Shown: positions 20,675 through 64,000 of the stretch, in pieces | Layout: each line of letters opens with the position of its first letter | How positions within the stretch are numbered: position 1 is the stretch's first letter | Source: Phyllosticta citribraziliensis | Taxonomy: Eukaryota | DNA length: 64,000 bases | Assembly (NCBI RefSeq): GCF_038025025.1 | Contig: NW_027117342.1 | Span: 682,001 to 746,000, forward strand | Reading direction: 5' to 3' | Program-made: the position numbers and the translations under genes | The notes under the pieces: generated by a model | What the model saw: only the letters and a program-made list of their open reading frames with translations | The model's database searches: none | What the model was told of the DNA's origin: nothing

Positions 20675-21375
20675 AGAAATTCGAGTAAGCCTACCCCGTG
20701 TACCCGGAATTCTCCTGGAGACACACATCCACCCGAGCACGAGGAACTTTCAAGTGAAGACTAATAATTTCAGTAGTCCTACCCCGTGTACCCATCACAA
20801 CCTCCAACTTCCCCCTCTATCATCGACTCAAATTTGAGTAGTCCTACTGGAATTGCCCCTCTAGAGAGTACATTAAGCGCCTCTCTCTTCGGCCCAGTCA
20901 ATCTTCCTCAAGCTCCACTACCGTACACTCACCAGAATTGGCCCGCCTCGCCCACCCTCACAACCTCCGAATTCCCTCTCCGTCATTGGCCGAAATTTGA
21001 GTAGTTCTACTGGAATCACCGTTCCAGAGGGTATATCAAGCGAATCTCTCGTCGGCCTAAGCGATTTTCCTCAAGCTCCACTACACTCACCAGAATCGGG
21101 CTGCTCCGCCCACCCTCACAACGTCCGATTTCCCTCTTGGTCAGTGGCCGAAATCGAGTAGTCCTACTGGAATCGCACTTCCAGAGGGTATATCAAGCGC
21201 CTCTCTCTTCAGCCCGAGCAATCTTCCTCAAAATCCACCGCAGTCGCCAGAGCCGGCCCGTTTCGCCCGCACCCAAAACCTCAAACTTCCCTGTTTGCTG
21301 CTGGCCAATATTCGAGTAGGCTTACCAAAATCGTCCTTCCAGAGGGTATATCAACCGCCTCTCTCTTCGGTACCA
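20675..21375. repeat. Degenerate ~160-bp tandem repeat (~3.5 units plus two shorter upstream partial units)
   Basis: The core GAGTAG(T/G)..TAC..AAT...CCAGAGGGTATATCAAGCGCCTCTCTCTTC recurs with GAGTA at 20836, 20999, 21156 and 21314 (spacings 163, 157, 158). Partial units at 20683 and 20771. Confidence 0.8.
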
Positions 21376-21915
21376 TCCTCCTTTCTTACCCTCCACTCCG
21401 TCCACCGAAATCTTTTGTAGACGCGTAGGCTACGAATTCCGCCTGCAGCCTCAAGATCACGCACTCGCCTCAGAAGCCTATATCAGCTCTCGGCCCTTCA
21501 GTCACCAACCATCCTCCTCACACTCCACTCCACCGACCTCAAATACGTCTTTCACGCCCCTTCCGGTTTGTCCAATCCCACAGATCACGTCCACAACTAC
21601 TGCTAACCTACATCCAGCCAGTGCGCCGCCCCAGCCAGCAAGCTGAACGGAGGTCGCCATTACTTCCCCAACCAAATCTCACTAGTCTGCCAAGTCCGTC
21701 AACAACACCAACCAACAGCCCAAGTGAACACCCAACACGGATCCAACCTCACCATCGCCACTCCGCTGTCCGGAGTCTACCACGAGCCCAGGCTGAGCTC
21801 AATCAGCCACACCGCTGCCCTCAGAGCTCTACTTCACTTCACTCTGAAAGTTGCCGCACTCACTTCCGACTGCAGTCGGTAGCAAAAACCCTCGCTCACA
21901 TCCAAATCCAGCACC

Positions 21916-24900
21916 ATGTCTTTGCCATCTACTCCCGCGAAGACCCCCCGCACTAAAACGAGTTCGCCTGCTGGGTCGAATGCAACTCTCACGCCATCTT
22001 CGGCATCCAAGAGGAGATCACTTGCCGAATCACCTACTGATAGGCGCAATCGTGTCAGCAAGGCTTTGAAGACGAACCCTGATGGTGCATCCGTGCTTGA
22101 CATTGCGAGTATCGGGGACAGCTACCATCGGACGGCTGGCTACCTCAATCTTGGTGTTCAAGAGCTTCAGAAGATCATTCGTCCCGCCAAAAATCAGGGC
22201 AGCGATGGAGCTTCGATACCCAAGGATGTTTCAGGCTGGATCGCCAATTTCATCAGCGTTCGTGATGTTCTACGGACCCCACAATCTGACAAGGGTTTCA
22301 GCATCCAGATGACGGCCATCAAGTGGTTTCTCGATAAAGAAGAATTCGGCAATGTCCTTGGGCCCCTTTTCAATGACGAAACTACACAGCTCCCCTTGCC
22401 CAAGGATCCCCCGGCGTATCTGCCTTTGGACAAGGCATCGATGTACTTCAAGGTTGAGACGGGTCAAGACCGAGCGCGAAAGTCCCATATCCGGTGGGCG
22501 CATCTCAACGTTCTCTTCGTTGTGTACCGGATACTGCGCCTGCTTCCTTCTGGCTGTGTAACAGGAGCCCCTTCGCCAGATTTCGAGAATGCAAGAAAGA
22601 CTCTCAGTTTTCATCCAGAAGACTGGACAAGAAGTCTTTGCCTGCTCAAGTATGCCAGCACAGACTTGAAGGGCAAGAAAGTTTCCCACAGGGGTCAGCC
22701 TACAGCCCCCGAATTCTTCACTCTCGAAGAGAAGATAGGCAGCACCTCCACTTCTTTCACAGCGCGTCGCTCAGAGGTCGAGCGGCCGTTCCAGTTTGAA
22801 CCATTCGACGACTGGATGAGGGACATGCTCAAAGCATCTACTCAAGTCCGCACAACTGAGGAGAAGGAGAAGGTCCAGGAAAGGGCTGTCAAGGCCATGC
22901 ACACTGCGATGAAATCAAGGGACTCCAGCATCCAAGTTTCACAAGGCCAACAGAAGAGTTTCCTCTTGGCACTTTACGAGAAGTATGGCCGTGAAGGAAT
23001 CCGATTTCCGGAGCAAAGACAAGGAGAGGGACCACTGGCCTTTTTCAATCGTTCAGAAGCGCAGAATGATGCTGAAGCTACCAGGAGCTTTTATGAGTTG
23101 CAGTCGGCTCTGAACAAGACGACAGCACAATCTCGCACTATTGAAGAGGCCTGCACGGCACTGGGATTTCCCTCCGACCCCACCCGTTGGTGTCTCAGAA
23201 ACAGTACACGAACCCTCAAGCCGCACCAAGTGCTGTCTCTGGATTGGGCATTGCAAATGATCACTACGCTTGGCTTCGCGTACCTCAGTAGTGATGTCGG
23301 AATGGGCAAGACAGCAGTGGCAGCTGCCCTCATTCTGAAGCTGCTGGAAGAAAGAAAGGCAGAGCAAGTCGGTCAGGCTTCTGGCTCCAGTGGCTTTCGC
23401 CCGACGTACAAGCCAACACTCATCTTGATCCCTCGCGATGCCATGTTGTCCTTGTGTGATGATCTCAAGGCTTTCCCAGACATCACGGCCTACCAATGGT
23501 ATGGACCGCCTGGAAACTCCATCTTCAATCGCGCCATTGGTACCTCGATTGAGGACTTGATCGAGAAGCTGGACAGCTTCGACCAGAATGATCCACTTAC
23601 AGCGCACCAGGTGGTGGTAACCACCTACGCCAAGTATCGGGCAATGGCGACACACTTGGACGACCATGGACTTCACAACACCAAGGGCAAGGGCAAGGCT
23701 GCCCATGTGCAAAACGATGCGGAAGAGCTCGATGAACAAGATGAAGAAGAAGAAGAGGATGAAGCTGGGGAGGAGGGGAACAACAAGCAGTATGGTGGTA
23801 AATATGAACACCTGGTGTGCTATGTCGAGGGACGTTTCGGTCTCGTTATTCTCGACCAAGCGCACAAGGCCAAGAATCCCCTGACTCGGACCCATGTGTC
23901 CATCAGCAGAACTCGTCCTGAGCAGCTGCTGGGCCTTACATCGACGCCAATCATGCAGTCGCCAGCGGACCTTCTCGGATACATCAAGCTTGCTTGGGAA
24001 GTAGCCAAGTCCCGAGACCTTGTCGGTGAAACCAACTTTCATCCAAGCCGAAACGCCTACGACCCGTTGGCTGAACAGCTCACTGATGCATCGGTCGTTG
24101 ACTTGCCTGCTTTGCTCCCGCTTCTCAATCCAGCGTCTTTCAAAACTCACCTCGGGTACTCAACATCGCACAGGAATCTGATCTCCTCGGTTGAGCACGC
24201 GCAGCAAATTGTGAAGCCAATCTTGCGCTTCTGCTTCCTCCGTTTCTACAAGGGACAGGACCTGAGTTCATTTGGACTCAACGAGGTTGCCGGTGGAGAA
24301 ATTCCTCGATACAAGCCCCTCGTGATGGAGCTGCAATATGACAAATATCAACAGCAGAAGCATGACAAGACATTCAGGGCCCTTATCCAAGACCGGGTCA
24401 TCGGCTCGAATGATCCTTTCCATGACGGCTGGAATGATCATGGTCACGTCCATCCCGCGGCGCACAAAGAGTTGGTGCAATTGGCGTCGAACTACTACCA
24501 CGGGAGAATTTGGAAAAAGATGGGCAGCATCAAAGCCGATGACATCCATGAGCTGAAGGCAAGATCGGACAGTGGATTCAAATTCCTCTTCTTTGCAATC
24601 ATTGGGAGATTTGTCGTCTACAAGACAGCACTTGAAAGGGTGGAGTGGATTGCCAGCTTGCATCCCAAGTGGGGTGTTCTCGCAGGAATATTGCAAGAGG
24701 TACGTTCTTTGCTACTGAGTCCATTCGGGCTCGCCGATTGCAGTCTGTAGCAACAGTCTACTGACAATAATTCAGGTCCTCTACAAACAGAAGAGCAAGG
24801 TGCTGGTCTTCGTTTCCTCGCCATTTACGCATCAAATTCTGGATACCTTTTTGCTGCACCTTGGAATCCAGTACGCCTCAATCAACTCGTCTGTCAGCAT

Positions 24901-25804
24901 GGATGACCGAGACAAGGCCTACGAAACATTCAACGACCCAGAGGACTTAACATGCGTCATGACCGTCAACACCAACCTCGGCTGCTCGTCTTTCCAGGCG
25001 CAACGGGCGTGTCATATCACGGTTCTTCTGGACTTTCCCGCCTTTCCCTCGCCTCGCCTCTTTGATCAGCTGATCGGACGAACTTGGCGCATGGGCCAGG
25101 AGCACTCGCCTTTGTTCATCACGATGACCACGATTGCCACCTACGACCACATTCTGCAAGGAATCTTTGCGCACAAGGCAATCTTGCAGACTGCAGTTCT
25201 GGCAGACATCCCAACAAAGCGCCAGCCAGCGGTTGAAAACGCCAACGACGATCAAAACCAGGACGAAGCGGCCCAAGATCAGGCGACTGGCAATGCCAAT
25301 GCAGAGGAGCAGCAAGAGGAGCGGGTGCAAGGAGAAGCAGATGCAGACGAAGCTGCAGATGAAGCTGCGGACGGAGCGACAGATGAGTTTGCAGATGACG
25401 CTGTGCGCAAAGAGCTTGACTCATTCATCGAAAGGACGACCGAACTCTACATGGAAGCCGTTGGCTTATCTTCGTCGCGCCTGGGCTGGGACAGGGCGAG
25501 TTGCGAACAGGTCCAGCAGCTTGGACCGTGTGCCGATGCCACTCGCGCTTATTCGGTCCTCCCCCCCGAGCTGGGAGGAAGAGCCGGTCCGCGGATAGGC
25601 CAACCGGTAGTTCTAGACGTTGACGAGGACAGTGATTTGTCCAATGACGAGCAGCAGGATATTGTCGAGGGGCCGGGTGAGTGTTCTTCTTCAGGAAGGG
25701 CGACTGGAGGGGCGACAAGTCAGGGAAAACGGGCAGCAAGCCGCGAGCCCGAGAATCCGGCGAAGAGGCAGGCGATGGAGGGGGAAGCTTCTTCGAGCAA
25801 ATGA
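21916..25804 (+). CDS. SNF2-family (SF2) ATPase/helicase-like protein, ~1270 aa, two exons (intron 24700-24775)
   Basis: Motifs LKPHQ, SDVGMGKT (I), ILDQAH (II), LTSTP (III) and QLIGRTWRMGQ (VI). A phase-0 GTACGT...CTGAC...TTCAG intron joins ORFs 21916 and 24800 in frame (ILQE|VLYKQKSKVLVF). Confidence 0.88.
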
Positions 25805-27854: not shown

Positions 27855-29629
27855 TCACGAGGAGCATTCAGGTGCAAACACCAGTGGAGCTTCCTTCGCC
27901 GCGGTCGTCCAACTTCTCGTCTGCGGCGGCCTTTGCTGAGGGTTTTTCTTCCGACGCGTGTCCAGCCCAACATCAACGTTGCCAAGTTCCAGCTCAATCC
28001 AAAGGTGACGATCACTGCGGAAGCCGAAAGCCTGGGCGGACGTCTTAGTGGCATCTTTGATCAGTCTTGCGCTCTTGGCGTCTTTCTCTGCACCTGGATC
28101 CATCCCGTCTTCCGGCTCGTCGAGGTCCTCATCATCGTCGAGGTCCAAGTTGGCAAGAATGGAGTTTTGAATAATTGTCTTGCGCGCGAACCTTCCTTGC
28201 AGGACTTGGTCGTACGTGTCAATCGTTGTTAGAATGAGGAACAATGGCGTCTTCCTCTGGCCGATGCGCCAGGTACGACCGATCAGCTGGTCAAGAAGCC
28301 GCGGCGATGGGAACGCAGGGAACTTCAGCAGGATTAAAGTCCAGCAGCGCCTTTGAGCATTGAAACCCGAGCTGTCCAAATTTACATTGATTGATGATGC
28401 CAACCTTGTCACCCGGATTGTTGAAGCGTTGGTAGAACTGAGTCCGTTGGTCCGATGAGACGGAGGAGTTAACCGAGTAATGATTGATGCCAAGGTTTGC
28501 AAGAAACATATCAAGAATTTAATGTGTCAGAGGGTTGCTGACGAAGACCAAAAGCTTGGACTTCTCAATCAACAAAACCTAGAAATGTTAGCCAAATCAA
28601 TGAGGTTTTCATGTGGACCTCCTTGCATACCTGGTTCAGTACGCCTGCCAGGGAGCCCCATTTGGGGTGCAGCGTGGCGATGTATATTGCACGATCCTCT
28701 GGATCCGTATAGAGCGGAAGGTTCGCTTCTTCGATGGTCTTTCTGAAAATGAAAGAAAATCCAGCGTCTGGCTTTGCCTTCAGTGCGTGGAACTGGTTGA
28801 CCTTCATGGAACCATAGCGTTTCACCAAGATTCCCGCCTTGACGTTAGAGTTGAGCTGGACGAGCTGGGAGTGCACGCCGTTGTCGATCGTACCGTGACT
28901 ACCACCATCACCCGTGTCATCGCTGCTGGTGCCACCATTTTTGAGGCGAGGAATCAGAGACTCGTACGCTTCGTCGTGGGATTTGTATTGGTGACGGTAA
29001 AGTCGAAGCTCGACGACGAGAGACTTGGAGATCGAACTTCGTTGGCCACGGTGTGTTCAATTCCGAAACAGCCCAGGTTTTGTCCCTTGTGGAAACGCAG
29101 CACGAGCATCTTGAGGACGGGAAGAACCACCATCTTTGCGTTCTTGGCCACAGAACCCAAGTCCGCGCGGCTTGACAGGGCTGCCAAGCATTTGGCGAAG
29201 TTCTGGGGGTGCAGAATCGAGAGAATTTCGGCTGGAGGAAAGGCGATCCAGACCGTTCAAGTCCTTCACTGCATTCGAGCGCATGCTCGTAAGTTTCGAC
29301 ATCGGCTCCAACATCGGATTCGTTGACCAATTGTCTGTTTTGGATCATGGACCAAGCCAGCGCGACGAATCCGTGCAAGTCGAACGGGGATGTGTACATG
29401 GGGGTTGCACTCGGAGTGAGTACATGGGAGGCCTGCATCCTCATAATGGCGCCATGCGTGAAGATCTTAACGGTCTTGACCTTGTTGGACTCGTCGAGAA
29501 TGACAAGACCGAGCAAATCTTCGACGTGGCTGATGTGACTGCCGGGCTGTTTTGGGGCCAAGGAGACTTTCCATCCCTTATCCTGTATTTCCTCGTCCCC
29601 CTCCGCTTCCGGGCCCCCATCCTCCAGCA
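27855..29629 (-). pseudogene. SNF2-family ATPase pseudogene (C-terminal half), paralogue of 21916-25804
   Basis: LVILDESNK, LTPSATP, LHPKWGSLAGVL and FPAFPSPRLLDQLIGRTWRIGQ align with the intact copy. Same intron position (LNQ|VLLIEKSK). Premature TAA at 28519-28521 where the intact copy has Gln, plus several frameshifts. Confidence 0.85.
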
Positions 29630-29768
29630 CAGTGGGTGTTGAAACAAATGAGACCTCCTAGCAATGATATTGCGCTTGGGGAGCATTCATTTGCTGTCGT
29701 GGTTGCACATAGGGAGCAGTCGTTTGTTGTCGTGGTTGCGCGTAGGGAGTAGTCCTTTGTTGCTGCAC
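29630..29768. mobile_element. Truncated copy of the 17201 MITE family
   Basis: Starts CAGTGGGTGTTGAAACAAATGAGACCTCCTAGCAA, matching the left terminus at 17201. Three 33-bp GGGAG(C/T)A units follow. No right TIR. Confidence 0.7.
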
Positions 29769-30170
29769 TTGTCACCGACGGGAGAAGGTCGTTCCTCGGA
29801 CGATTTGTACGCGCGGATCAGCTCGCGCTCGATGGCGTACAGTTATTCAGCCATTCTCTCATCCATAGGGTTGGCAGTGCGCTGGGCTCTGGGATTGTCC
29901 CAGGAGCTCTCTGTGTCGTGCCTGATACTAGATTCCGTATCCCTCGAATGAAGGCGGACGAAAACGACTTGTTCGTCAGTGTGAAGCTCCTGTGCAGTCT
30001 CATTTGCCTTGAGCTCGACCCTTCTAGCCAGTGGTAGCGGAAACGATCAGCACGCCCGTCTTGTGGTGCTCTTCCTCGAAATACACCAGCGGCATGACCA
30101 CAGCGCAGGAAACCTCGGTCTTGCCAGTACTGGGTGGGCATTGGATCATAGCCATACCGTATGGCATGGC
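29769..30170 (-). pseudogene. SF1 (Upf1-like) helicase fragment
   Basis: MPYGMAMIQCPPSTGKT...PLVY...VLIVSAT, then after a frameshift VVFVRLHSRDTESSI...LIRAYKSSEERPSPVGDK. These match GIGIVQGPPGTGKT...VVVRVHARHTESSI...LTGVYRRAIHKPFGVGDK of 34050-37085. Confidence 0.8.
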
Positions 30171-30175
30171 TCACA

Positions 30176-31863
30176 CTAGAGACAGAGAATTGAGGGCGCC
30201 GCAAAGTCCTGAAACTCGGACTTGACGAGGTTGACGAGGCAGGGGTGCCGATTTCCGCACTTGCATCGCGACTTCGATTCGAAACAGATCTTCCGTTCAT
30301 TGTTCTCCACGTTGGACTCCAAGATTAGGTGGGCGGCGTTAACACAGTGGCGGTTGCCACAACGGTGGGAACAGTCCAGTCCGCCCAGCACATATTGATC
30401 GAAGTGATTGTGTGAACTGTCGATTCAACTATCTACTGAGCTGTCCGTTTTATGGAAAACACCAGATGGCTTGCCTAATTCGGCATCGCCGTCTGCAAAC
30501 GGACCTCCGCGATATCGCGGACTAGGCGCGCTGGTTGAGCAGGTTGCCTGATTCGATCCGACACGTATGCCCTCCATTCGTCCCTAATCATGAGACCGCA
30601 GCCAATGGTGACTGCAAGGGCGATGTTGATTGAAAGAGTATCACGGCGGTCACAGGCCTCGCAAAGGCCAGAAGAACAGTCCTTACGTCGAACGCTGGGT
30701 TGGGTTGCCGTCGCGTAGATTCTAGGAGCGACGTGCAGACAACCACCATTGGTTGAGAGGTTGTCTGGGAGTTGGTTGTCTGGGAGTTGGTTGTCTGGGA
30801 ATTTGCCGGGGTTCTCGCTGAAGATCGTTTGGACTTTGCTTGCATTCTACCGATTCAGGTTGGGGACAAAGCGGGACATGATGTTGTAGGCGAAGTCGCT
30901 CATCCCCTTCATCCATTTGTGGTCATCCCAGATAGCGATGGCCTGCCGCATGCACGCCTGTTGCTGGAGGCTGCGCATTGGCCGGTGGTCGTCCGGGATT
31001 TCCGCCAAGTACCCGCGCGAAGTCTGGCGATAGTGTTGGGCTCCTTTGGGGCCACAGTGGTCGATCGCTTGTATCCTTTCATTTTTTCGCCAGACCGAGG
31101 CATCCCTGGACAAGAAGCCGAAGCCGAGCGCGGTGCTAAAGAAATGTAAGCTTCAAGGGTATTGCACGTAGGACTAGGTTCTTACAGTCTGGCGTAGTGC
31201 TCATCATCCACAAATGATGATGCTGGTGACACGGACCGTGAAGATGTCGGGGTTGGAGAGCGACTGCGAGATGGGCTTGACGGCGACCTGCTTCGTGGGC
31301 GGGGTTGGCGACGTCCACGGCGAGGGCTCTCGTTGTCTTCGTCCTGCTGGCCGTCGTCCTGTTGGCCGTCGTCATACTCGTCATCGTCGTTCTGCTCGCC
31401 GTTGTAGACATCGGAGTCCGTGCCGCGTTGGGAGTCTTGGAGCTCAAGCTCCTCGTCAACCGAGGACTCGACACGTAGGCGCTTGCTGCGGCGACGCGAT
31501 GACTCCCTTGACTTTCTGTAAGAGGGATTAGAGTGTGATGGAAATGCGGTGGGGCCTTCACTTACGTAGCAGACGCGGATGCTTGAGCGACGGCTCTGGG
31601 GCGGCGACGCGAGGGCTCTTCCGACTTGCTGTGAGAGGGATTAGAGGGTGTTGAAAACGCGATGAGGCCTCCACTTACATTTCAGACGCGGATGCTTGAG
31701 CGACGTCTTCGGGCTCGCTTTCGTCAAGGTTGATTGCATTGCTTGCCGACGAGCCACTGACATGAAACTTTCTGGCAATGCTGAGCATCGCAAGTTCCTG
31801 GTAGGCGTCAAACTCAGCCTTGGACTTCACGCTTTTGAGCGCGTCAGTGAGTGCTTTGTCCAT
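30176..31863 (-). pseudogene. His-Me finger (zinc-binding loop) endonuclease family gene, disrupted
   Basis: C-terminal DCSHRCGNRHCVNAAHLILESNVENNERKIC...CKC...PCL. The upstream domain aligns with 52382-53440 (NR*NASKVQTIFSENPGKFP; IGCGLMIRDEWRAY). Stop at 30847 where paralogues have Trp, and a ~170-bp insertion at ~30391-30563. Multi-exon 5' part from ATG 31863. Confidence 0.8.
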
Positions 31864-32191
31864 CGTGAGGTGGACCCCGGTGCGAAGCGGGCAAAGTGCA
31901 GGAAATGGTGAGGTCGGAGGGATTGGATGAAATTTGGAGAGAAAAGATGGGCAGAATTGCTGAGGTAGCTCGCCGTCCGATGCAGGCAAAGTCGTGAAAC
32001 GGGCGAAATCAGAGGGAACAGGTGAAGGTGGGAGAGAGAAGAAGAGCAGAATAATGGCTTTCCTGGGGGGCATTGTGGGGCTCAATCGGGGTTAGCGCTG
32101 GGAGGCTTCAGCCAATGGCATGTTGCCCATTCGGCGTGACCTTTGGCAGCTGTCCTTTCCTTTCCACTCCTGGCGCTAAACCCTTGAATTT

Positions 32192-33599: not shown

Positions 33600-33850
33600 T
33601 AATCCCTACTCACTGTTTCGAGCGCATGATGGAGGCGCTGATGCGGCGACAGGCGGAACTGTGCTCCTCCGGCGCAACCACCAGGGGCTGGATGGGCGTA
33701 GCGCTGCGGTACGTCTTGTCTATTCCTGGATGGCCTTGAATGATACCGACCGCGGTTGGCAGCGCTCAGTCAGGACATGATCATCGCGGCTTTCTGCTCG
33801 GCGTTGAGCTTGTTCTGAAGGAAGCTCATCGCCTTTGTGGCAGGCTCAGA
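33600..33850 (-). pseudogene. SF1 helicase fragment (Q motif and decayed Walker A)
   Basis: KAMSFLQNKLNAEQKAAMIMS*, a 4-bp CTGA duplication, then ALPTAVGIIQGHPGIDKTY...IQPLV. This matches CAMELVESRLNPGQVAAVTMTRSLPSGIGIVQGPPGTGKTF...VQPLI. Confidence 0.75.
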
Positions 33851-51679: not shown

Positions 51680-51800
51680 TCTGCGTCCAGGGAGCATTCA
51701 TCCAACGACACGTCTGCACTCATGGAGCAGTCATTCATTATCACGTCCGCGCTCAGGGAGCAGCCATCCAATACCACATCCGCACTCAGAATGCACGTTG
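51680..51800 (+). repeat. 33-bp tandem repeat (~3.5 units) of the MITE-internal family
   Basis: Units such as TCCGCGCTCAGGGAGCAGCCATCCAATACCACA with a 33-bp period. Confidence 0.7.
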
Positions 51801-52381
51801 ATGACTCAGGTGGAGTTTTGAGGCCCAGTATGTCCGATAGTCAACCTCGGCAACGAAGCCGCAGCCAATGGACGTTCGGGACGCACATTCGGAGCATTCT
51901 GCAACGCCACACTGGTATTTGGGACAGATGCGATGTTCACGAAGGGGGACGGACGAGGCCAGCAGATCTTTAGCTCATTTGGACGTGGAGACGACGCTCA
52001 TGTCATGGCGGCTGCTTCGGAGTGAAGGAACAGGCGCGAGTTGCACGGGTAGAGCGGGCCAAATCTCGTTGAGCATCTGCGCTGCGCCATGCGGGCGAGA
52101 GGGAAGCTATGTAAAATGTGCCGGACTCGAAGGATGGAAGCGTGTGGGTACTTAATGTGAGTACTGATGTCTTTCTTGTGGTCGAGGTAGCAATGGTGGC
52201 GAGTTCATCTTCATTTTCTGCCTGGTGGTGTTGATTGTACAGATTTTGCATTGGCTCTCCCTTATACCCTGAGCCTTCGAAATCAAATCGTTCTCGTCAA
52301 GCAAAAAGCAAGATTGACCGCGTAAAATTCATGACAAAGGAAACCGACGAAGATACAGCGGGTAAACTCGAGGATTTGGGG

Positions 52382-54120: not shown

Positions 54121-54967
54121 TGCTTGAAGAGCCTCTGAGCAGGTATTCATGAGCCAAGAGCGACAGAGAAGGGAAGCGCCATCGTGGCTACCCACCTCCA
54201 TCGGCGCGGCATCCTTGCGTGCCTTCACTTCAGGCTTGTCGGAGCGGATCGTCGAACGGCGGATCCTTCTTTCTTTGGCTCGGAGGCGCGCACGACAGCA
54301 TCGCCCAGGCCGAGGTTGTCAAGGCGGGTCTTCCAAAGGCCAGCCCGCGAAACAGTCCACAGGCGAGCAGTGTGCCTCGAACGAAAGTCCGTACGGTAGC
54401 TCGGTAGATTTGAGAGAGAGGCGAGAGGTGGTGGAATCTGCGTCGATGCTTCGTGGGGTGCGTCGCGTCGGAGTCGGCGTTTGCGCGCGTCTCAAGCAGG
54501 AAGCCAATGTTGTGCTCACAGGGCTCAACCTTTGGCGAGGGCCCGGCTGCTCCCCGAGCGTGCCCGGATTAGCAGAGGATCGCTCCCTGGGCGCAACCAT
54601 TGCAATTAATGGTCAGATGGGCCACGATTCCAAGACGTTGTACCAAAAATCTGCGTCGGGGTGGCGGCGGCGGTGTGGGGTGCCCGTCCGCTTGGTTGCT
54701 GAGTGAGCTTGAATCAACTTCATCCTGTGAGTTTTGCTCGAAATTGTAGACTTTGCAAATGCATAGATACCATGGCCCTCGTGCTGCGGGGCACTGAGGG
54801 TCTCCACCAGCGGGAAAAAGTTGAGGACGGTAACGAGTTGGCTTAGTTGGAAACTGGAGGCACCAATCTTTCATTCGCTGCTTTCTATTGGCCTTTGGTC
54901 GATTTCATCTCTTCATCATCCACCACCCAATGTTGAAAGCTCCCAAAATGCCAGCCCAATATTCCTT

Positions 54968-57931
54968 TTAGCGTCGCCCACGCCCGGCCTTCGCTGAGGC
55001 AGCCTCGTCTAGGCCGCTAATCGCCGCAAGCTTGTTGACTTGAGCCTTCGAGAAAGAGAATACCTGCTTCAAATGACGGTAAACCTGGGGAAATGAGCTC
55101 CGATCAAATGCATACTCATCCTTGTTTTTAAGTGAGTCCCTGTTCAGGACGATGATGAGGCCGTATTGCGCTCGAGAAATTGCAACGTTGACTCGGTTGT
55201 TCTCTTTCAGAAACCCAATTTTGCTCGTTCTCACAAAATCCACGATGACAAAGTCGAATTCTCGCCCTTGAACTGAGTCGAAAGTTTCAAGCTGCAAATC
55301 GGAGATCGAAGGGGTCGCCTTGGCCAACTCGCTTCGCGCGATGTCATAGAGATCTCGTTGTGCAGTGTACGGGACCAGAAGAGCGATTCTGGAGGCGGAA
55401 ATTCCCTCGTGAACAAGTCTGCGAATGCAGTCCATGACAATCTTCACATTGACAACGTTGAAGTGCGACTTGGAAGCGCTCTCGCGCTGGTCGTCGCCAT
55501 ATTTGACATGAAAGAAAAAGGCACTGCGGTCGTCGGCTCCCAACGAATATTCCTTTTGCATGGCGCGTCGAAAGGGCAGCGCTTGCTCATTCAGTCTCTT
55601 GTTGACGCTCGCCGGGGTAACCAGTCCACCCTCGTAGAAAGTGTCTGAGTATATCTTGGCGATTGAGCTCACGCTTCTACGCTGCTCAACAAGCATTTTG
55701 GCCGGATATCCGATCTTGCGGAGCCTGGTCATGGCTGACAGAAGCCTTTGGTCGCGGAAAGAGTTCTGGAAGCTTGTTGCAGGCTGCAGCTGCTTGGAAT
55801 CACCCACAAGAAGCTTTGTGCCCTTTGGATACCTTGCGAAAATAGGCCAGAGATCCGGGTCAGTGGCGCGGGAGGCTTCATCAACAATGATTGCGCTGGG
55901 CTTGATGAAGTTGAAGAGCTGGCGATCGCCGGCAACTCCGAGAGATGCCACCACAACGTCGGCTTTCATCAACGCGGCTGTGCGGAGCTCCTCTACCAGT
56001 AAATCAAGCTGGGCTTTTAACTCTTGGTCAGCCATTTCTTTCCGCCGGAAGCACTGGCAAAGATTGCGCAATGAAGAGAAGCGCGACTGTCCCTTCTTGG
56101 CATACAGGCTGTCCATAAAGCCCGACATCTGGAACATCAGGTTTGCCAGGCTGTACTCTTCGAGCCTCAAGCGCTCATCCACAATCTCGGCGTTATGGTA
56201 TGTCGGAAGATTGTTGAGAAAAAGCAATCTCTCGGTTTCCATGGAGTGTAGCCTAACGACCGTCAAATTCCGAGTCGAGGCAAGTTGGCGACTCGTCTGG
56301 TCGCAGAGAGACTTGACACGCACAGCGATGTCATCGACGCTAAGATTGGACGTCGAGAGGAGCAACACGGGCGGACCCTTCGTCATGCTGCGGCGGTCGG
56401 AGAAAACCAAAGGCTGGACCATGTTGGCAATTAAGAAGGTTTTCCCTGTGCCAGGTGGTCCCTCCACGATCCCGACACCATTTGGCAAAGCCCTGGTTAA
56501 TTCCAAAGCTGCGGCCTGTCCGGGATTGAGTCTTGACATGGCCAGCCACAGAGCCTCGGAGGCTTGCTCGTCACGTTCAACATCAGCGTACATGTCGATG
56601 GACTTTTGCTTCGGAATCATGTGGCCCAGCAAGACACCTTTGACCCATTGGCAACCGGGCTCCTCAGTGATGATCTGCAGGGCTCTCAGGGACCTTTGGA
56701 TGTGAATGGCCTTTCCTTCGTCATGATTGCGGTAGTCGACACCGAGTTGCGGAGCCTGGCGGATGGCGTCACAGATGGTACTTTCAGACGCTGTGCTTCC
56801 CACGGTAATTGCAGCCGAAAGCACATTCGCATTCCATTGATTTGTCCAGTCGTTGACGTCCTGGCGAATCCGGAGAGTAACTGTCTTTGGAAGTGTCGAG
56901 AAATTTTTCTCCACAACGGTTGCATTGGCACTGGGCCTCTCCATGTCGTCAGAGGCATCCTCATTGTCAGAAACCGTCTCCGAGGTGGGCCTTCCGAAGT
57001 AAATCTTGAGCATTTCGCCCCTGCCAAGTCGGTATTTCTGGGGATCATGCTCGAGGACACCGAAAAGACAGCCACTCGCAGAGTCCGCGATCAAAACCAA
57101 ACGGATTTTTGACTGATTGGTATCAAAACGTGCCGCGTCCCCTTCCTCTTCCTCAGTGGCTGCGATGCGCATGATTGTGGCATACTGAAGCCACTCGCTG
57201 AAGACAATCTGAGCGGGCAATCTCAGGCTTTTCCGCTCTTCTTTTGCCTTAAGGTCGGAACACGTGAAGTTTATGGCAGACGAGCGATAGAACTGGTGTA
57301 AAGGTTCCACTTGTCGAAGCTTTTCGAACAATCTGTTAAACTCTTCCAACTCTTTTGTCGGCTCGAACAACCTCCAGCCAAGGGCGTAAATAGTTCCATT
57401 TTGAGCAAAGCATTGCCGTACTTTCTCGATCGTAGCTTGATGCGATCCATGCGATATCCAGCGAGTCTCTAGGCCTATGGATGGCGGGTATTTGGCGTAG
57501 GAGACTTTGAGAATGTGCAGCGGCCTGCTCATTTTCGCTGCGACCCCGATGCAACGAGCGAGGTCTCCGCGTTCCAGACCAAAAAGACTCATGGCTTTGT
57601 CCATTGTATCGTCGGTCAGCATTTCAGCCGTCATGCGAGATGGCTTGCCGTTCTCATCGACAACTGTAGTGCGATTCAACCGCACGAGGATATCGGAAGT
57701 ATGTTTGACACACACATTGTTGTTGCGCAGATCATAGCATCGGAGATTGCAATCTACGACGGAGTCATAACCGCGATGTTCCTCGAAGAGCAGAGAGGAG
57801 TCGATGTGTGGAATACCGTCGCGTATCTTGAGATCGTTTACATATGCCTCAGCGCCAACGACAGTGGGCTCGGTGTCGCCCATGGGCTTGATTGCCAGAA
57901 TGCAAGGAAAATTGAAAGCGCGGCCTGTCAT
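54968..57931 (-). CDS. Second Upf1/Sen1-like SF1 helicase, ~987 aa, intronless
   Basis: EGPPGTGKT, IIVDEASR, LVGDSKQLQP, EQRRS, TFDSVQGREFD and NRVNVAISRAQ. MTGRAFNFPCILAI aligns with the N-terminus of 34050-37085, which places the start at 57931. Confidence 0.9.
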   Translation of the reverse strand: MTGRAFNFPCILAIKPMGDTEPTVVGAEAYVNDLKIRDGIPHIDSSLLFEEHRGYDSVVDCNLRCYDLRNNNVCVKHTSDILVRLNRTTVVDENGKPSRMTAEMLTDDTMDKAMSLFGLERGDLARCIGVAAKMSRPLHILKVSYAKYPPSIGLETRWISHGSHQATIEKVRQCFAQNGTIYALGWRLFEPTKELEEFNRLFEKLRQVEPLHQFYRSSAINFTCSDLKAKEERKSLRLPAQIVFSEWLQYATIMRIAATEEEEGDAARFDTNQSKIRLVLIADSASGCLFGVLEHDPQKYRLGRGEMLKIYFGRPTSETVSDNEDASDDMERPSANATVVEKNFSTLPKTVTLRIRQDVNDWTNQWNANVLSAAITVGSTASESTICDAIRQAPQLGVDYRNHDEGKAIHIQRSLRALQIITEEPGCQWVKGVLLGHMIPKQKSIDMYADVERDEQASEALWLAMSRLNPGQAAALELTRALPNGVGIVEGPPGTGKTFLIANMVQPLVFSDRRSMTKGPPVLLLSTSNLSVDDIAVRVKSLCDQTSRQLASTRNLTVVRLHSMETERLLFLNNLPTYHNAEIVDERLRLEEYSLANLMFQMSGFMDSLYAKKGQSRFSSLRNLCQCFRRKEMADQELKAQLDLLVEELRTAALMKADVVVASLGVAGDRQLFNFIKPSAIIVDEASRATDPDLWPIFARYPKGTKLLVGDSKQLQPATSFQNSFRDQRLLSAMTRLRKIGYPAKMLVEQRRSVSSIAKIYSDTFYEGGLVTPASVNKRLNEQALPFRRAMQKEYSLGADDRSAFFFHVKYGDDQRESASKSHFNVVNVKIVMDCIRRLVHEGISASRIALLVPYTAQRDLYDIARSELAKATPSISDLQLETFDSVQGREFDFVIVDFVRTSKIGFLKENNRVNVAISRAQYGLIIVLNRDSLKNKDEYAFDRSSFPQVYRHLKQVFSFSKAQVNKLAAISGLDEAASAKAGRGRR

Positions 57932-58830
57932 GGCTGCGCGTACTGGGTCACTGTTGTTTGGCCGTACGAATTTCAGCTCCAGCGCGTTGCATGAGTACGG
58001 AGGGGGGAACCAACCTTTGCAAGAATCCGGGCGGAGTAAATTGGAATGTTGACCAGATCTTGAGTTTGGTCCAATGCGAGCGTGGTGATGAGAGTTGAAT
58101 GGAAGTGTGGGGTTCGGTGGGCTGCAAGCGGTGATGGCTGAGGTAGAAGTGGGCACAGCAACCTGAGGCAGGATGGAGTTTCTGGTGCTCGCTGTCGGTG
58201 GTAACTGGCGGGAAGCGATCGTCTGCCCTGCGTAAGAAGCTGGGGAGCTGTGATTCAACACCACACTTACGCCTATGACGGAGGACGATGGAGAGAGGAA
58301 GATGGCGGGTGACGGGGTCTTTGGTGTGTTTGGCAGAGTGGACAGGTGAGCGCTACTCATGAACACTCCTCGGGGATGGCTCTTTTGCTGGCTCGGGTAG
58401 CGGTAGGGCACCAGTTCGAAAAATGGCAGGCAATCTGCCAAGTTGTTGTCGCCCTGTGGGAGTGTTAAAAATGGAAATTTGCGGTGTCAAAATTGCTCAG
58501 CCGACCAAAATTCGTTCCTCCAGCCATGATCTTCCGCACAGTCCAGCACCCTCCATCTCCTCCAAGACAAGGAAAAGTTTGCGCCAACGGGTATACTCTC
58601 CCCTCTCGTCTGCTCCGTCTCTCAAGCCCCCCGTTCACTCGAATTTCTCAAACACAACGCTTCCTGACAAGTCCTTCTCCTCTTTTGCACAGCTCTCTAC
58701 CATTTTCGTCGCCGACCAAACCCCAAGCTCCCCGAAGACGCGCTCTCCTCATTCCACCTCGGTCTACGCTTCCTCTCTCTATCCTTGAAGTCTCTCTCCG
58801 CGCTTCAGCCCCGCAGAAAACCACAGAAGC

Positions 58831-60587
58831 ATGGCGGCGCGCAGCCAAATCGCCGCCTCTATCCAGGCTTTTGCGGATGGCGCTGGCAGCGAAGCTGCAC
58901 GAGACGAAAGGATCGAAGATATTATGGACATCTGTCGCATGATTAAGAGCCGAACTTGGAACGGGAATGGACTTGGCGACATCACCAACGCCGTTGAACT
59001 CCATCCGGTGACCTCTGGATTCGAAGCGGCCAACAAAAGACAAGGAGCGGCCAACACTGCGCGGGCTACAAACAAGCGCCCAGCCTCTCAACTTCCCACA
59101 GGAGACGAGGCTCCGAGTTCCAAAAGGCGGACCGCTGGCTCGAGGGCGGCTACAAATTCGATCAACCAGGAGGCCAAAGGCCAGAAGCTGCGCCCGAGTC
59201 CAGATGCAGGAAACAGTCAAGAGACTCTTGCGGAGGAGCCTGTGAGGTCCTTTGATCATCTCATTATTTCCTTGGCTTACACGTTCACAGGAAGATGAGC
59301 CCGACCGAGTTCCAGTCTCATTCCAACTTGCCGTGGACCGGGCCAAATTTCCAGACTCGCGCATGACCTTCTACGACGGCGGAGAGAGCATCGTCGATCT
59401 CAGCCACACTGCCCTACAGAACTTGGCACATCGGCCGCTCACCACGGCAAAGGAATTGAAAGACGTGGAATATGTGAGAGACGCAACAATCTATCTCTGC
59501 AAAGTGCTGGGAATTGCTGGAATTGAAGCTCTCCGACGCAAGATGTCTCACTTGCGTGAGAGCAGGCCAGTCCCATCATCTCAGGAACCGATCACCTCAG
59601 CAGTAGATGTGCCAACTGAGCTCCGGATGATTTTGCAAAATCTCTTCACGGGTGCTGGCTACCTCGCTTCTTTCGAAAACAAGGAGTACGTGCTTTGCAA
59701 GTCCGCCGCTGAGCTCGCACGTTTGTGGCATCTTCTTAAAGAGCGACTTGCTCGCGAGGATGATGAGTACACTGGCTTCATAGAGCAGAACGAAGATTGC
59801 CGTATGCTCAAGCGAGACAATCGCAACAGGACTAATGAGGCTCTCTGCCTAGGGTGGCTTACTCTACAGTATCATCCCCATGCAAGACACCATGCCAGCG
59901 GGATCCGTACGAAGGAGTTCGCAAAAGCACGGGAGCAAATCAAGCACAAGATTGGTGCCGGTGAGCACATGATGCTGCTCGAGGACTATTTCGGAGATGC
60001 CGTCTTTTTGCTGATCCTTCCAGGATGGACAGGCATGTACGTCAAGCCATTCCATCCCACTCCTTCTGTACTGAAATTGCTTTAGATTCAAGAAGGGCCG
60101 TTGCCAATTCACTCAACAGGTGTTGGACGACATTTTCCTTGAGCATTGTCCAGACCTTCCCGCCATTTGTCGCCAACTTGCCCCCGCCGCTTCTGGCTTT
60201 GACCAAGAGGGTGGCTCGCTGCCCAAGTTCGAATTCGAAATCCCAGGTGCGCTCGATGGGGGCAACTTGTCTCTGGCTCATCTGCTTTCTACTGTTGAAG
60301 GTGGAGCAAATCCCTTCCGATCTGAGAATGATGCACCTGGAACAGTGATGGCCGTGGGTCTTGCAGGCGCTACAGCTGGTGCCGACCCTGTTTTGGGCCC
60401 GACCAGTGGTGTAGACCCGACGACCGCAAGTTTTGCAGCATCTGAGCACGAGAAAGAGCACACCAGCGGCTGGAGCAACAATCCCGCTGTTATTCAGGAC
60501 GAGAGTGCAGTGGAGGAGTCTGAGGATCCCAACGATACGTCCCCTGCTTCTAACTTCACTGAAGACGAGGATGAGGAGGACTATTGA
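58831..60587 (+). CDS. Hypothetical protein, ~552 aa, three exons (introns 59242-59290 and 60037-60085)
   Basis: Two 49-nt GT-AG introns join three ORFs into a 1659-nt frame. Acidic C-terminal tail. Divergently oriented from the SF1 helicase. Confidence 0.75.
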
Positions 60588-61099: not shown

Positions 61100-62270
61100 C
61101 ATAACCAGGGTTTGAATGTTTGGATGCTCCCGAACATCTTCCTCCTACTTCCTGCTCACAACTGCCAAACCCACTCCGACAGGCATGCCGAGGACACCAA
61201 TGAACTCGATTTTCTCCCAGATCTGGCAATGCTCGCAGTGAAAAGTATACAATTTTCGGGTCCGCGAAGTAGCCTTCTTGCTGGGGCCACCGATCAGAGG
61301 GATGAGGATGCAGTGAGGGACACGTCGCAACGAGCCTCTGATGTCGTCGCGGTGAGGGAAATTGTTTGTCGCCGGTAAATCCTTTCCGTCCGTAAGGATT
61401 TAGAAGTGAGGGCGACCGATGAAGGGCTCAAGAAGGGTCTTGGCATACTTCGCCATTTCAAAGTGGAAATTCGGGTCGTCCCAGACAGAGATCGACCTCT
61501 GAGGCAGCTTTCACCATTTGTCTTTGGACGGTTGGCCAATGCAGTGAGGGACTTGGCGTGAAATGTCGCAAGTATCGTTACGGCCCGCGGAAAAATCCTA
61601 AGTAGAGAGGATATTCTCCCCATTCGCAATGACAAAGTGCTTGATGTCTCCAATGAACGGCTCAAGTAACGATTTGGCATTCAGTTGCATCTCAAAAAGA
61701 AACGCTGGGTTGCAAAATACTGCGATATGTCCCATCAAGTAGCTGGGTTCGCTTGGGCGGAGTAGGTTCAACAGCACGCTCCCATTTGGTGGTTTGTAGA
61801 CTCGGCCTTGGGTACGAACGCGGAGCAGATTCTTCATGCCCCAAGTCTGCGGGCCATCTCGACCGGAGTGGCGAATGATTTTTTTGATCGCATGGCGGTC
61901 AAATTGTAACCATGGCAAGCGGGCTTGTGGTGGGACGGCGCCTTGAACGACGACCTGGTTGTTTGCTTTGTTGGTTCTGGATGCAGATCCGCTGGTGGTG
62001 CTTACCCATCGTCATCATCGTCGTCTTCAGCAAGCGTCAGATCGATCACAACCTTGGGCTTTTTTGGCGCAGGGCCTTCTTCGTCGTGGTCTGTTGTTGG
62101 ACGTGTCGGTGGAGGTGGAGCACCAGCCTCGGGCTTAATTTTTGGCGTCGTGCTTGCGCTTGTAATTGCATTGGTAGCAAGGATGGCCAGGTTTCGGCGG
62201 ACTTCTGAAGACGTGGACTGCGTGCTCTGCCTGGGCAGGAGGCTGATAAGCTCGTCCGTGGAAATCTATT
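61100..62270 (-). pseudogene. Fourth, degraded His-Me endonuclease family paralogue
   Basis: HSGRDGPQTWGM...FIGDIKHFVIANGENILST*DFSAGRNDTCDISRQVPHCI matches HPQGTQDFGL...FIGHLNHWDPTKGQTILSANPNKFPPGREHPRDISARINGCI. FHCEHC matches FPCNRC. Multiple stops, and no intact nuclease motif seen. Confidence 0.65.
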
Positions 62271-62786
62271 TCACACACAAGTAGTTAGCTTTCTACTCGT
62301 CTTTACCAGGCTGCAGCAGGGATCCTGACTTCTGATCTGGACATTTTGGCGTGAGAGAGATGGTGATGTAGGGTAAAAGAGGTGAGGGGAAAAGGCGGGA
62401 AAGAGAGCGATGGGTATTTCATTGAAAGGTCCGGCATGGCCTGCTGCCGGGATAGGCAGGTTAACCATTGTTATCATTTTTGTCTCCATCAACCGTGAGA
62501 TTGATCACAACCTTGAGCCTTTTCGGCGCCGGGGCTTGTTCGTCGTGGTCTGTTGGCGGACGTGTCGGAAGGCGCGCATGATCGTCCTCCGACTTGATTG
62601 CTATCCGTGACTGTCCGATGCTGTGTGCGGTGGGAGGGAACAGACTCTGACGCTTGGACCGGGGGACTTCTTCGTCGACATCACTCGCGTCGTCGACTCT
62701 CGCACGCTTCAAGGCGAAGACCTCTTCCTCAGTCAACTCTCTGGGCTTCCGCTGCCTGGGATACGAGCCAGAATGCGGCAATACAC

Positions 62787-62973
62787 GACTGCTCCCTGAG
62801 TGCGGCTGCAGCAGCAGATGGACGCTCCTGAAGCGCAACTGTATCAGGGAGTGAATGCTTCAAAAGCGCGGCTGGAGCAGCAGACGGATGCTCCTAAAGT
62901 TCAACTGCAGCAGCAGATGAATGGTCCTGAAGCGCGACTGTGGCAGCGGAGGAACGCTCCCCAGATGCACTCG
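62787..62973 (-). repeat. 33-bp tandem repeat (~5.5 units), MITE-internal family, inverted orientation
   Basis: The reverse-complement unit ATCTGCTGCTGCAGCCGCACTCAGGGAGCAGTC closely matches AATCGCTGCTGCAGCTGCACTTGAGGAGCATAC at ~17264. Confidence 0.8.
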
Positions 62974-63234
62974 CTGCCCTGTCTCCTCATTCGTTTCCTA
63001 AAGCGGGCCGTGGATATCACAACATGGGTCGAGGGGAAAAGCTTCGAGTTTTCAAACCAGGGCTGCATCGCTCAAGGCCACTGGCAACATTTTGTGAACA
63101 GTCATTTCTCCTAAATGCTGTCTATCCTATCTTCCATGAACAAACAGCTGCAGTCCGCCCGATGTGGCACTCCTCCAAGGAAAGACGGGCCTTCGCGATA
63201 TCTCGGTGCAAGGCGCGACGTTGCCGGTTTCGTC

Positions 63235-64000
63235 AGCCGCGGTCGTCTTCCCCAAGCCAAAGTCAAGTCCAAGGCATGCATAACCAAGCTTAAAAAGCAT
63301 TTCCACTGTCCAGTCCAACGGCAAAACCTGATGGGCTTTCAGCTGCCGGCTGCTTCCCTCGACCATCCAGGTTTCTGGGTCGTCCTTGGTGAAACCAAAC
63401 GGATCGCATGCCGCCTGAAATGAGCGTGCTTTAGCAGATGACTTGTTGAGCATGGCTTGCAAAGCAAAGAAGTCCCGATTTCCTTCACAACCTTGGTCCA
63501 TGATCTCTTTGGCAGTCAGATCGATGTCGGGTTGGGCCGTATCCATCGGTTGTGCTGTTTTTCCGTTCAACAAGTGGTCAAGAGGCAGGCTTGGCTTCTG
63601 CATCTGTGGGTAAACGACGTGTTTTCCTTTTTGCGTTGACTGGAAAATAGAAAGAAGGATCTTCTCACCATGGTGAGGAGGGATCGAGGGGCGGTGAGGC
63701 AGTTTGGTGAACGACTCGTGGATTGACTTGATGAGCACCTTTTGCATCGACTGGAAAATGGAAAGAAGGATCTTCTCACGGTGGTGAGGAGGGATGGAGG
63801 GGCGGTGAGGCAACTTGGCGTAAGACTCGTGAATTGACTTGATGAGCACCCCTTGCGCACCCCCAAACCTCTTTTGCGTCGACTGGAAAATGGGAAGAAG
63901 AATCTTCTCACGGTGGTGAGAATGGATCGAGGGGCGGTGAGGCAGTCTGGCGAACGACTCGTGGATTGACTTGATGAGCACCCTTTGCGCATTCTCAACC
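63235..64000 (-). pseudogene. Third SNF2-family paralogue, N-terminal fragment truncated after motif I
   Basis: LQAMLNKSSAKARSFQAAC...LKAHQVLPLDWTVEMLFKLGYACLGLDFGLGKT versus LQSALNKTTAQSRTIEEAC...LKPHQVLSLDWALQMITTLGFAYLSSDVGMGKT. Confidence 0.8.
63635..63992. repeat. 111/132-bp tandem repeat (3 units) inside the SNF2 relic
   Basis: GACTGGAAAAT recurs at 63638, 63749 and 63881. Confidence 0.9.

Follow-up and report, generated by a model that had tools for sequence, protein, structure and literature searches.

The stretch of DNA analysed here, referred to as the window, comprises 64,000 nucleotides of Phyllosticta citribraziliensis (positions 682,001 to 746,000 of the forward strand of contig NW_027117342.1, assembly GCF_038025025.1), and all coordinates below are counted from its first letter. 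Between 21.9 and 64 kb, Pfam, BLASTP, tBLASTn and profile scans assign nearly all recognisable genes to four families: SNF2 ATPases, Upf1-like superfamily 1 (SF1) helicases, His-Me nucleases of the I-PpoI type and a family, called X, that has no Pfam domain (Table 1). A 33.4-kb block of this island lies between two pieces of an SNF2 gene and is bordered by inverted, transposon-type repeat ends. This layout suggests, tentatively, that a mobile element inserted into an SNF2 gene and carried the other three families as cargo.

Gene content of the island

Paralogues were mapped by self-BLASTP of 536 open reading frames (ORFs) of at least 60 amino acids (aa), by tBLASTn with the intact members and by six-frame profile scans. 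Pfam was run on 25 long ORFs and then on 136 of the 250 remaining ORFs of at least 80 aa, which cover the gaps on both strands, giving a total of 161 ORFs between 16.2 and 64 kb; the decayed nuclease gene HisMe-b was the sole match of the additional round. The cluster is real and not a chance pattern, because the two intact helicases, HEL1 and HEL2, are 31% identical over about 1000 residues (E 1e-154) and because further copies could be mapped. The identity extends over the N-terminal region as well as the core. GC content is 0.51-0.57 throughout the window, and there is no AT-rich tract.

A first-pass annotation, made from the sequence alone, had proposed a multi-copy cluster of four families in mixed intact and decayed states, and the four methods together confirm it. 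The copy numbers required some correction. The three SNF2 pieces are present, but they probably represent two genes, the two partial pieces being complementary halves. All four SF1 copies were recovered, but a fifth piece at 38514-38937 (+) was absent from the earlier list. Most of the four nuclease copies were found, but the one placed at 61.1 kb is weak (tBLASTn E 0.005, missed by the profile). The three copies of family X stand, with mutual identities of 22-37%. Nuclease and helicase pieces do adjoin three times, and the view that the region is something other than ordinary core genome is supported. Such a cluster was not found described in the literature on PF05551/His-Cys-box nucleases, I-PpoI in Pezizomycotina, fungal transposons and Starships, and PMC9073689 yielded nothing relevant on repeats or RIP (repeat-induced point mutation).

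Table 1 Features of the window, with block ends and island families first and other features last. TIR, terminal inverted repeat; MITE, miniature inverted-repeat transposable element; LTR, long terminal repeat
Feature	Position	Strand	Description
Left block end	29628..29763	+	TIR (CACAGTGGGTGTTGAAAC...) and three 33-nt units; no inner TIR
Right block end	62777..63012	-	Roughly six 33-nt units with a degenerate TIR; opposite in orientation to the left end
MITE-like element	17200..17372	+	173 bp; ~30-nt TIRs, three 33-nt units; outside the island
33-nt repeat units	51682..51776	+	nhmmer E 5e-6; beside the nuclease-motif fragment
SNF2a	21883..25804	+	Intact divergent SNF2 ATPase gene; Pfam
SNF2b	27858..29657	-	Decayed C-terminal two-thirds in several frames; self-BLASTP, tBLASTn
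SNF2c	63127..64000	-	N-terminal SNF2 part up to motif I (GLGKT); runs off the window
HisMe-a	52385..54364	-	Intact I-PpoI-type nuclease, annotated 474 aa; transcribed, three introns
HisMe-b	30206..32091	-	Decayed; body 30206-31089 in three frames, Pfam 6.8e-9
HisMe-d	32328..33436	+	Truncated, opposite strand; acidic N-terminus and N-domain only (piece 33227-33436)
Nuclease-motif fragment	51798..51875	-	25 residues; profile E 3.8e-7
Candidate decayed nuclease-family gene	61529..62900	-	Weak N-domain similarity (61529-61768, tBLASTn E 0.005), missed by profile
X1	39907..40727	-	Family X copy; frame restored only by a putative 35-nt intron
X2	41305..42147	-	Family X copy; annotated as 223 aa starting at 41973; Copia 5' LTR abuts its 5' end
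X3	48263..49310	-	Intact, annotated 312 aa; transcribed, spliced; introns 48964-49009, 49195-49260
HEL1	34053..37085	-	Intact Upf1-like SF1 helicase, annotated 1011 aa; ORF 34050-37196
HEL2	54971..58360	-	Intact Upf1-like SF1 helicase, annotated 1130 aa; ORF 54968-58486
Helicase fragment	29768..30200	-	Walker A region, HEL1 residues ~513-661; directly downstream of decayed HisMe-b
Helicase fragment	33661..33765	-	Short Walker A piece just downstream of HEL1; profile E 2.5e-6
Helicase fragment	38514..38937	+	N-terminal region, HEL1 residues 252-398; tBLASTn E 2e-9, missed by two-sequence profile
Tandem repeats	20792..21399	+	Four ~157-nt units directly upstream of SNF2a
Copia LTR retrotransposon	42162..47351	+	Uninterrupted 1516-aa gag-pol (ORF 42459-47009); 268-nt LTRs 99% identical
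Arg/Ser-rich gene	49627..51060	-	Transcribed, spliced; between X3 and nuclease
Two ORFs	59246..60587	+	279 and 170 aa; no family, no paralogue in the window

SNF2 genes and the ends of the block

In the intact gene SNF2a, two ORFs (21883-24750 and 24719-25804) are joined by a 76-nt intron at 24700-24775 (GTACGT..CAG). The first ORF matches the Pfam domain SNF2-rel_dom (1.4e-7), together with ResIII, and the second matches Helicase_C (3e-9); SNF2a has both the SNF2-related N-lobe and the Helicase_C lobe. A PDB sequence search with SNF2a gave no match, and its nearest Protein Atlas clusters (best 10 of 30) are generic SNF2 or ResIII families. Motif II of SNF2 proteins is canonically DExH, and replacement of the Walker B/DExH Glu by Gln blocks hydrolysis in other ATPases. 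DExH is replaced at this motif by DQAH in SNF2a (~23.8 kb) and by DESN in the decayed SNF2b. Both SNF2a and SNF2c carry tandem repeats on their 5' sides, with units of ~157 nt in the former and periods of 111-132 nt at 63628-63998 in the latter, where they preserve the reading frame and encode a repeat of 37-44 residues.

The two partial SNF2 pieces lie on either side of the block. SNF2b corresponds to SNF2a from residue ~600 (~618 in the mapping of paralogues) to the end and extends as far as the left end of the block; its part immediately beyond the TIR aligns to the linker and motif II of SNF2a with a score of 61 that none of 300 shuffles reaches. SNF2c matches SNF2a residues 397-480 at 63235-63489 (-) by BLASTP and tBLASTn. 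The two pieces are complementary (residues from ~600 and up to 480, respectively), both lie on the minus strand, and the N-terminal half is upstream. As judged from sequence, they are probably the halves of one broken paralogue, which would bring the number of SNF2 genes to two.

A repeat search detected a periodic 33-nt repeat at 17.2, 29.6, 39.3 and 51.7 kb and, inverted, at 62.8 kb. The copy at 17.2 kb is part of a MITE-like element whose outer ends are TACAGCG and CACAGTA; its TIR pattern has three matches compared with none expected from 100 shuffles. When this element was used as an nhmmer query, the left block end matched MITE positions 5-144 (E 2e-15), with the terminus CACAGTG, and the right block end matched at 62997-62877 (-) (E 1e-8) and 62862-62777 (-) (E 5e-10). 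Both end copies keep the outer TIR and the 33-nt units, lack the inward-facing TIR and are inverted relative to each other. This layout therefore points to the two ends of one long element, of which the MITE would be a short derivative. Because the block lies between complementary, same-strand SNF2 halves at inverted ends, the SNF2 gene appears to be the target of the insertion and not part of its cargo. The large non-canonical transposon suggested in the first-pass annotation thus receives partial support from the inverted ends around 33.4 kb, but SNF2 does not appear to belong to the cargo.

A shorter unit within the block, 51682-61031, containing HisMe-a and HEL2, is kept as a lead only: of the repeat copies that bound it, the right one is weak (E 0.0026) and the left one has no TIR. 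In addition, a 37-nt piece of a related repeat (62932-62969) is embedded in abundant RNA contigs that come from other genomic loci, and the repeat family is therefore present and transcribed elsewhere in the genome.

The Pfam scan of the 161 ORFs revealed no DUF3435 recombinase, no transposase other than the Copia integrase, no polymerase and no viral hallmark gene. This result bears on the proposal that the island is cargo of a Starship, or of another recombinase-driven giant element, whose captain lies beyond the window. The region is large and lineage-restricted, contains accessory genes and continues past the right-hand limit of the window, as such cargo might. However, no DUF3435 or other recombinase was found in the ORFs scanned between 16.2 and 64 kb, and the block has recognisable ends wholly inside the window together with long TIRs, whereas we know of no Starship with long TIRs. 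A literature search for Starships with SNF2 cargo returned nothing relevant. We therefore regard a Starship-type origin as very improbable.

The I-PpoI-type nuclease and family X

HisMe-a is the intact member of the nuclease family. Its ORF at 52382-53512 (-) matches the Pfam domain zf-His_Me_endon (3.3e-10), and its alignment to the I-PpoI chains retains H98, C100, H101, C105, H110, N119 and C125, by which the catalytic His, the metal-binding Asn and the Cys/His zinc ligands of I-PpoI all find counterparts. I-PpoI and the His-Cys-box enzymes are listed as group 12 in a classification of His-Me finger endonucleases (PMC5714182), and HisMe-a belongs to this group. HisMe-a has three GT..AG introns (53502-53549, 53682-53730 and 54135-54195) that are seen in RNA contigs, and it is a free-standing gene with spliceosomal introns that does not lie within a self-splicing group I intron of ribosomal DNA (rDNA). 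Upstream of the nuclease domain, it carries an N-terminal extension of ~300 aa with an acidic motif and a conserved N-domain.

The other members of the family are decayed to different degrees. HisMe-b largely keeps the His-Cys box and has acidic N-terminal ORFs upstream. The candidate gene at 61529-62900 (-) shows the acidic N-terminal motif and contains a 139-nt internal duplication, and a spliced RNA contig of low depth lies on it (intron 62266-62329). A scan of metagenome contigs with the nuclease gave no match. At the N-termini of the family (53.8-54.0, 62.5, 31.7 and 32.5-32.9 kb, and in protein P0152 described below), short hydrophobic runs are followed by Ser/Asp/Glu stretches, as in VVDLASSSDEDGD, VVLDTDDDES and EIISLISDDESDDD; we take these runs to resemble SUMO-interaction motifs. 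Exact sequences of HisMe-a and HEL2 come from one contig only, whereas those of HEL1, X2 and X3 come from two. The two single-contig genes are those within the candidate inner unit at 51.7-61.0 kb, and the distinction could be a strain difference or merely a difference in gene models.

X3 is an intact copy of family X. The coding parts of X1 lie in different frames, which are connected by a putative intron at 40521-40560 (-) (GTCGCC..ACTGAC..CAG) that is unusually short at 35 nt and sits where X3 has its 46-nt intron. Because only this putative intron restores the frame, the status of X1 is uncertain. A word-indexed protein search for X returned only the window's own copies, and X3 had no usable match in the Protein Atlas. 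A full HMMER search, in contrast, found 99 cluster representatives at E <= 0.001, 35 of them at E <= 1e-10. Names were looked up for 30 proteins, namely P0002, which is the nuclease of P. citriasiana, and 29 X matches. The X members identified in this way belong to P. citribraziliensis (two strains), P. capitalensis, P. citrichinensis and P. citriasiana within Phyllosticta, and to Botryosphaeria, Diplodia, Periconia, Aaosphaeria, Trypethelium and Viridothelium outside it; in one P. capitalensis strain, they lie on four different contigs. Given these members and contigs, X is a family of Dothideomycetes that occupies several scattered loci in each genome.

An AlphaFold model of X built from 71 sequences is confident and all-helical (predicted local distance difference test score (pLDDT) 82, predicted template modelling score (pTM) 0.75). 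Foldseek found no match to the model at E <= 0.001 in the PDB or in a viral structure library, and the X sequence profile had no match in the PDB. VIA-align paired the model with the Homeo-prospero domain 1mij_A (Z 8.1, root-mean-square deviation 3.9, 131 of 139 residues; next row Z 3.8), a score to be read with the tool's caveat that Z below ~13 can reflect a common arrangement in helical proteins. X is possibly DNA-binding, and this predicted fold match is a lead, not a finding.

Nuclease and X recur together in other genomes. In P. citriasiana, the nuclease P0002 is KAK7510939, one X protein is KAK7510940, and further X proteins are KAK7510946 and KAK7510947, all encoded on one 1.02-Mb contig; the consecutive accession numbers suggest that the genes are neighbours. 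An annotated P. citribraziliensis protein, P0152, encoded elsewhere on the same 2.47-Mb contig as the window, combines an X domain (residues 38-276) with a nuclease N-domain (336-417) that is 52% identical to that of HisMe-a, and in another strain (BC567) an X gene is two accession numbers away from P0152. The association of nuclease and X is therefore a repeated one. Relatives of the helicase and of SNF2a were not found in the proteomes of these X-bearing species as far as a search of 5.8 billion proteins reaches. Because X is widespread where no helicase relative was found, the four families are not an obligate module. The co-inherited module proposed in the first-pass annotation accordingly holds for nuclease and X as recurrent neighbours, but not for the four families as a unit.

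In a tree of 26 X proteins, X1 groups with KAK7510940 (support 100/100) and X3 with KAK7510947 (93/90). These orthologue pairs imply that the island, or at least its nuclease-X part, is older than the split between P. citribraziliensis and P. citriasiana. They also point to vertical descent and speak against repeated recent re-insertion; the first-pass annotation had proposed repeated duplication or re-insertion. X1 is 57% identical to KAK7510940, and the nuclease is 42% identical to its P. citriasiana counterpart; such values between congeners suggest very fast divergence.

An intact catalytic set in a transcribed nuclease gene raises the question of a homing drive. The nuclease would cut an allele in which SNF2b/c is uninterrupted, and repair would copy the whole block into it as a giant free-standing homing element. 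The gene is indeed interrupted without a target-site duplication, as homing would leave it. However, TIRs are present although homing needs none, the block holds several diverged nuclease copies instead of one, and the orthologous X genes of P. citriasiana indicate long residence. A homing origin thus seems quite improbable.

Upf1-like helicases

The cores of HEL1 and HEL2, which include Walker A and B, match the Pfam domains AAA_12 (4.9e-30 and 3.8e-35) and AAA_11 (8.3e-28 and 2.2e-25). The core matches Upf1 structures (E 8e-29) and a bacterial MkoA model (E 5e-55); PDB matches begin at residue ~668 or later. For the N-terminal 480-490 residues, there is no Pfam match even at E 5, and the CH zinc-knuckle domain of Upf1 is absent. 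An AlphaFold model of this region, built from two sequences, had a pLDDT of 41 and was not used.

In the search of 5.8 billion proteins, which scored 8000 candidates and retained 248 proteins at E <= 0.001, the two window helicases came out on top, and the third match (E 2.9e-19) covered the core only. The helicases are thus without close relative among these proteins, and the only two full copies known are both in the window. A scan of metagenome contigs gave 64 loci, all matching in the core only, with 21-57% identity in the best segment (mostly 21-33% in the longer matches), and none of the 64 encodes a relative of SNF2a, the nuclease or X. These loci are unrelated SF1 helicases and therefore provide no test of linkage.

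The absence of a close cellular relative is compatible with a relic of an integrated large DNA virus or other foreign element that brought in helicase, SNF2 and nuclease, a combination with HNH-type nucleases that is common in large DNA viruses. However, scans of viral contigs with the helicase, the nuclease and SNF2a, which address the viral relic proposed in the first-pass annotation, found no relative, and the X model is likewise unmatched in the viral structure library. Capsid, polymerase (including polB) and packaging genes were not found among the 161 scanned ORFs. The genes carry short GT..AG introns of the fungal type, and the GC content at third codon positions (GC3) is 0.59-0.79 in the island genes and 0.64 in the flanking gene. 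With GC3 values close to that of the flanking gene and introns of this short type, a recent foreign origin is unlikely, and a viral relic is extremely improbable.

Insertion versus a static cluster

The evidence from the ends, the SNF2 pieces and the three other families can be combined into one scenario. A large non-autonomous element, lacking its own transposase, or a small element that expanded afterwards, would have inserted into the second of two convergent SNF2 genes, giving rise to the block at 29628-63012. Its cargo would be a cluster with repeated gain and loss of gene copies from three fast-evolving families, namely the nuclear I-PpoI-type nuclease, the helical, possibly DNA-binding X and the Upf1-like helicase pair. 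Nuclease and X would most likely act jointly on DNA in a genetic conflict, such as a killer/antidote system, allorecognition or defence, in which the helicases would be accessory. A TIR-bounded insertion in an SNF2 paralogue that carries such a conflict cluster is a reading that we hold tentatively, as quite possible though short of probable. A narrower version, in which the nuclease, a domesticated homing enzyme, and X form a killer/antidote or allorecognition system that diversifies in arrays like those of bacterial nuclease toxin/immunity loci and resides with the helicases in an SNF2-disrupting 33-kb TIR transposon, is distinctly unlikely in all its particulars.

Several points weigh against this scenario. 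The right TIR is degenerate over its outer ~15 nt, no target-site duplication is present at the flanks of the block or of the MITE, and Pfam detected neither a transposase, apart from the Copia integrase, nor a recombinase in the scanned ORFs. Demonstrable SNF2c homology ends at 63235, which is 223 nt short of the right repeat end; a stretch resembling SNF2 motifs Ia/Ib at 63071-63012 would reach that end, but 85 of 500 shuffles equal its score, and it is not significant. The repeat is not exclusive to the ends, since nhmmer also detects weak 33-nt units in the interior (51682-51776, 60920-61031 and 39348-39389). It is position alone that suggests a joint function of nuclease, X and helicases, and the block is presumed to have been mobile as a unit. 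In the other species, adjacency is read from accession order and not from coordinates. X lies on several other chromosomes and in species without a found helicase relative, and the X1 and X3 orthologues are those of an old, vertically inherited cluster, which fits a cluster that never moved equally well.

In such a static cluster, the copies would have arisen by local tandem and segmental duplication in a chromosomal region that evolves fast and tolerates transposons, the MITE copies at 29.6 and 63.0 kb would be independent insertions or would have mediated inversions, SNF2b and SNF2c would have been truncated separately, and no unit would have moved. The pairs X1/KAK7510940 and X3/KAK7510947 show inheritance from a common ancestor, the paralogues are very old or diverged (22-37% identity in X, 31% in the helicases), and internal duplications exist, such as the 5' exon region shared by 50954-51058 and 54228-54364. 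The lack of a target-site duplication and a transposase and the units inside the block favour this account as well. However, independent MITE insertions are unlikely to yield two end copies that both lack the inward TIR and are mutually inverted, and the SNF2 pieces, each abutting one end, complement each other and share strand and correct order. We consider a static cluster rather unlikely.

Expression, decay and other genes

RNA contigs from two sequencing runs were available for the region 47501-64000, and although none of the runs is catalogued as RNA, the contigs are RNA-derived because they contain minus-strand GT..AG joints. Spliced contigs cover X3, the Arg/Ser-rich gene (49.6-51.06 kb) and HisMe-a, and a low-depth one covers 61.25-62.9 kb; none lies on HEL2 or on 54.65-61.2 kb. 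The 5' region of the Arg/Ser-rich gene (50954-51058) duplicates that of HisMe-a (54228-54364) over ~105-135 nt with 72-83% identity. The duplicated segment, shared by two transcribed genes, suggests a common promoter or first exon.

The decayed copies have a patchwork structure; only a few bases separate HisMe-b, for example, from a downstream helicase piece beginning at the Walker A region. Repeat-induced point mutation (RIP) was considered as the cause of decay and rejected: in the island segments, TpA/ApT is 0.21-0.66 and the substrate index 1.10-1.59, and by the usual thresholds of these indices 18 of 18 segments are negative. The old copies would instead have been broken by deletions and rearrangements.

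The Copia retrotransposon is a recent insertion, because its gag-pol ORF is open and its LTRs are 99% identical; the element is likely young and possibly active. Outside the island, a single ORF of at least 5408 aa occupies 2-16225 (-) and runs off the window edge. It consists of dozens of Thr/Ser/Pro-rich repeats of ~35-45 residues (ITTLTIPY.GTSSLTAP.TSTILPT.SG..TT.LVETP-like) and probably encodes a very large mucin or adhesin of the cell wall. This ORF accounts for the strongly positive GC skew over the first 16 kb.

Comparison with known systems

HisMe-a shares with I-PpoI the His-Cys box (PF05551), the catalytic His, the metal-binding Asn and the zinc ligands. However, I-PpoI is encoded by an ORF in a group I intron of rDNA, whereas HisMe-a is a free-standing nuclear gene with three spliceosomal introns, a ~300-aa N-terminal extension and a family of paralogues with decayed copies. 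To our knowledge, free-standing nuclear His-Cys-box nucleases of fungi have no assigned role. HisMe-a is an intact, transcribed case that is tied to a helical family across species and lies in a block with transposon-type ends. If nuclease and X form a pair, the locus would be a eukaryotic conflict or incompatibility system of a new type and might yield new sequence-specific nucleases.

HEL1 and HEL2 have the AAA_11/AAA_12 core in common with Upf1, IGHMBP2, ZNFX1, Sen1 and Mokosh MkoA. They differ from Upf1 in the absence of the CH domain, and they are unusual in an N-terminal region of ~500 residues that has no Pfam match and no relative among billions of proteins. In a scan of defence systems, only ATPase cores match (MkoA at 5e-55; ZorD, BrxH and DrmD weakly), and none of the Mokosh, DISARM or Zorya partners (MkoB, DrmA-C, ZorA-C) was found among the 10 window proteins scanned. 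The window helicases thus differ from Mokosh in that its phospholipase D (PLD) nuclease partner, MkoB, was not found beside them. The helicase of AcademH elements is described in PMC10799480 as being of the DEAD/Helicase_C type.

Bacterial polymorphic nuclease toxin/immunity loci, which pair HNH or colicin-DNase toxins with small helical immunity proteins, resemble the window system in that a His-Me nuclease stands beside a small all-helical protein, both diversify fast, and arrays of orphan copies and nuclease fragments are present. However, the window system is eukaryotic and nuclear and has no secretion or delivery domain, and X shows no relation in sequence or fold, as far as was found, to known immunity proteins.

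The block shares with CACTA/EnSpm-CMC transposons, by the general features of that superfamily, subterminal arrays, a short derivative and captured genes. CAC-type termini are seen in part, with CACAGTG at the left end and TACAGCG and CACAGTA at the ends of the MITE. The block differs from these transposons in that neither a 3-bp nor any other target-site duplication was found, no transposase was detected, the right terminus is degenerate, and there is one long copy. A non-autonomous CACTA element would itself lack the DDE transposase. The likeness to Starships lies in a lineage-restricted block of accessory genes, tens of kb long, in a filamentous ascomycete. The block differs from them in having long TIRs and subterminal repeats and no DUF3435 captain that could be found, and its cargo families presumably differ from typical Starship cargo. 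Should the block have moved as one, the giant mobile elements of ascomycetes would include a TIR element that carries genes and differs from Starships.

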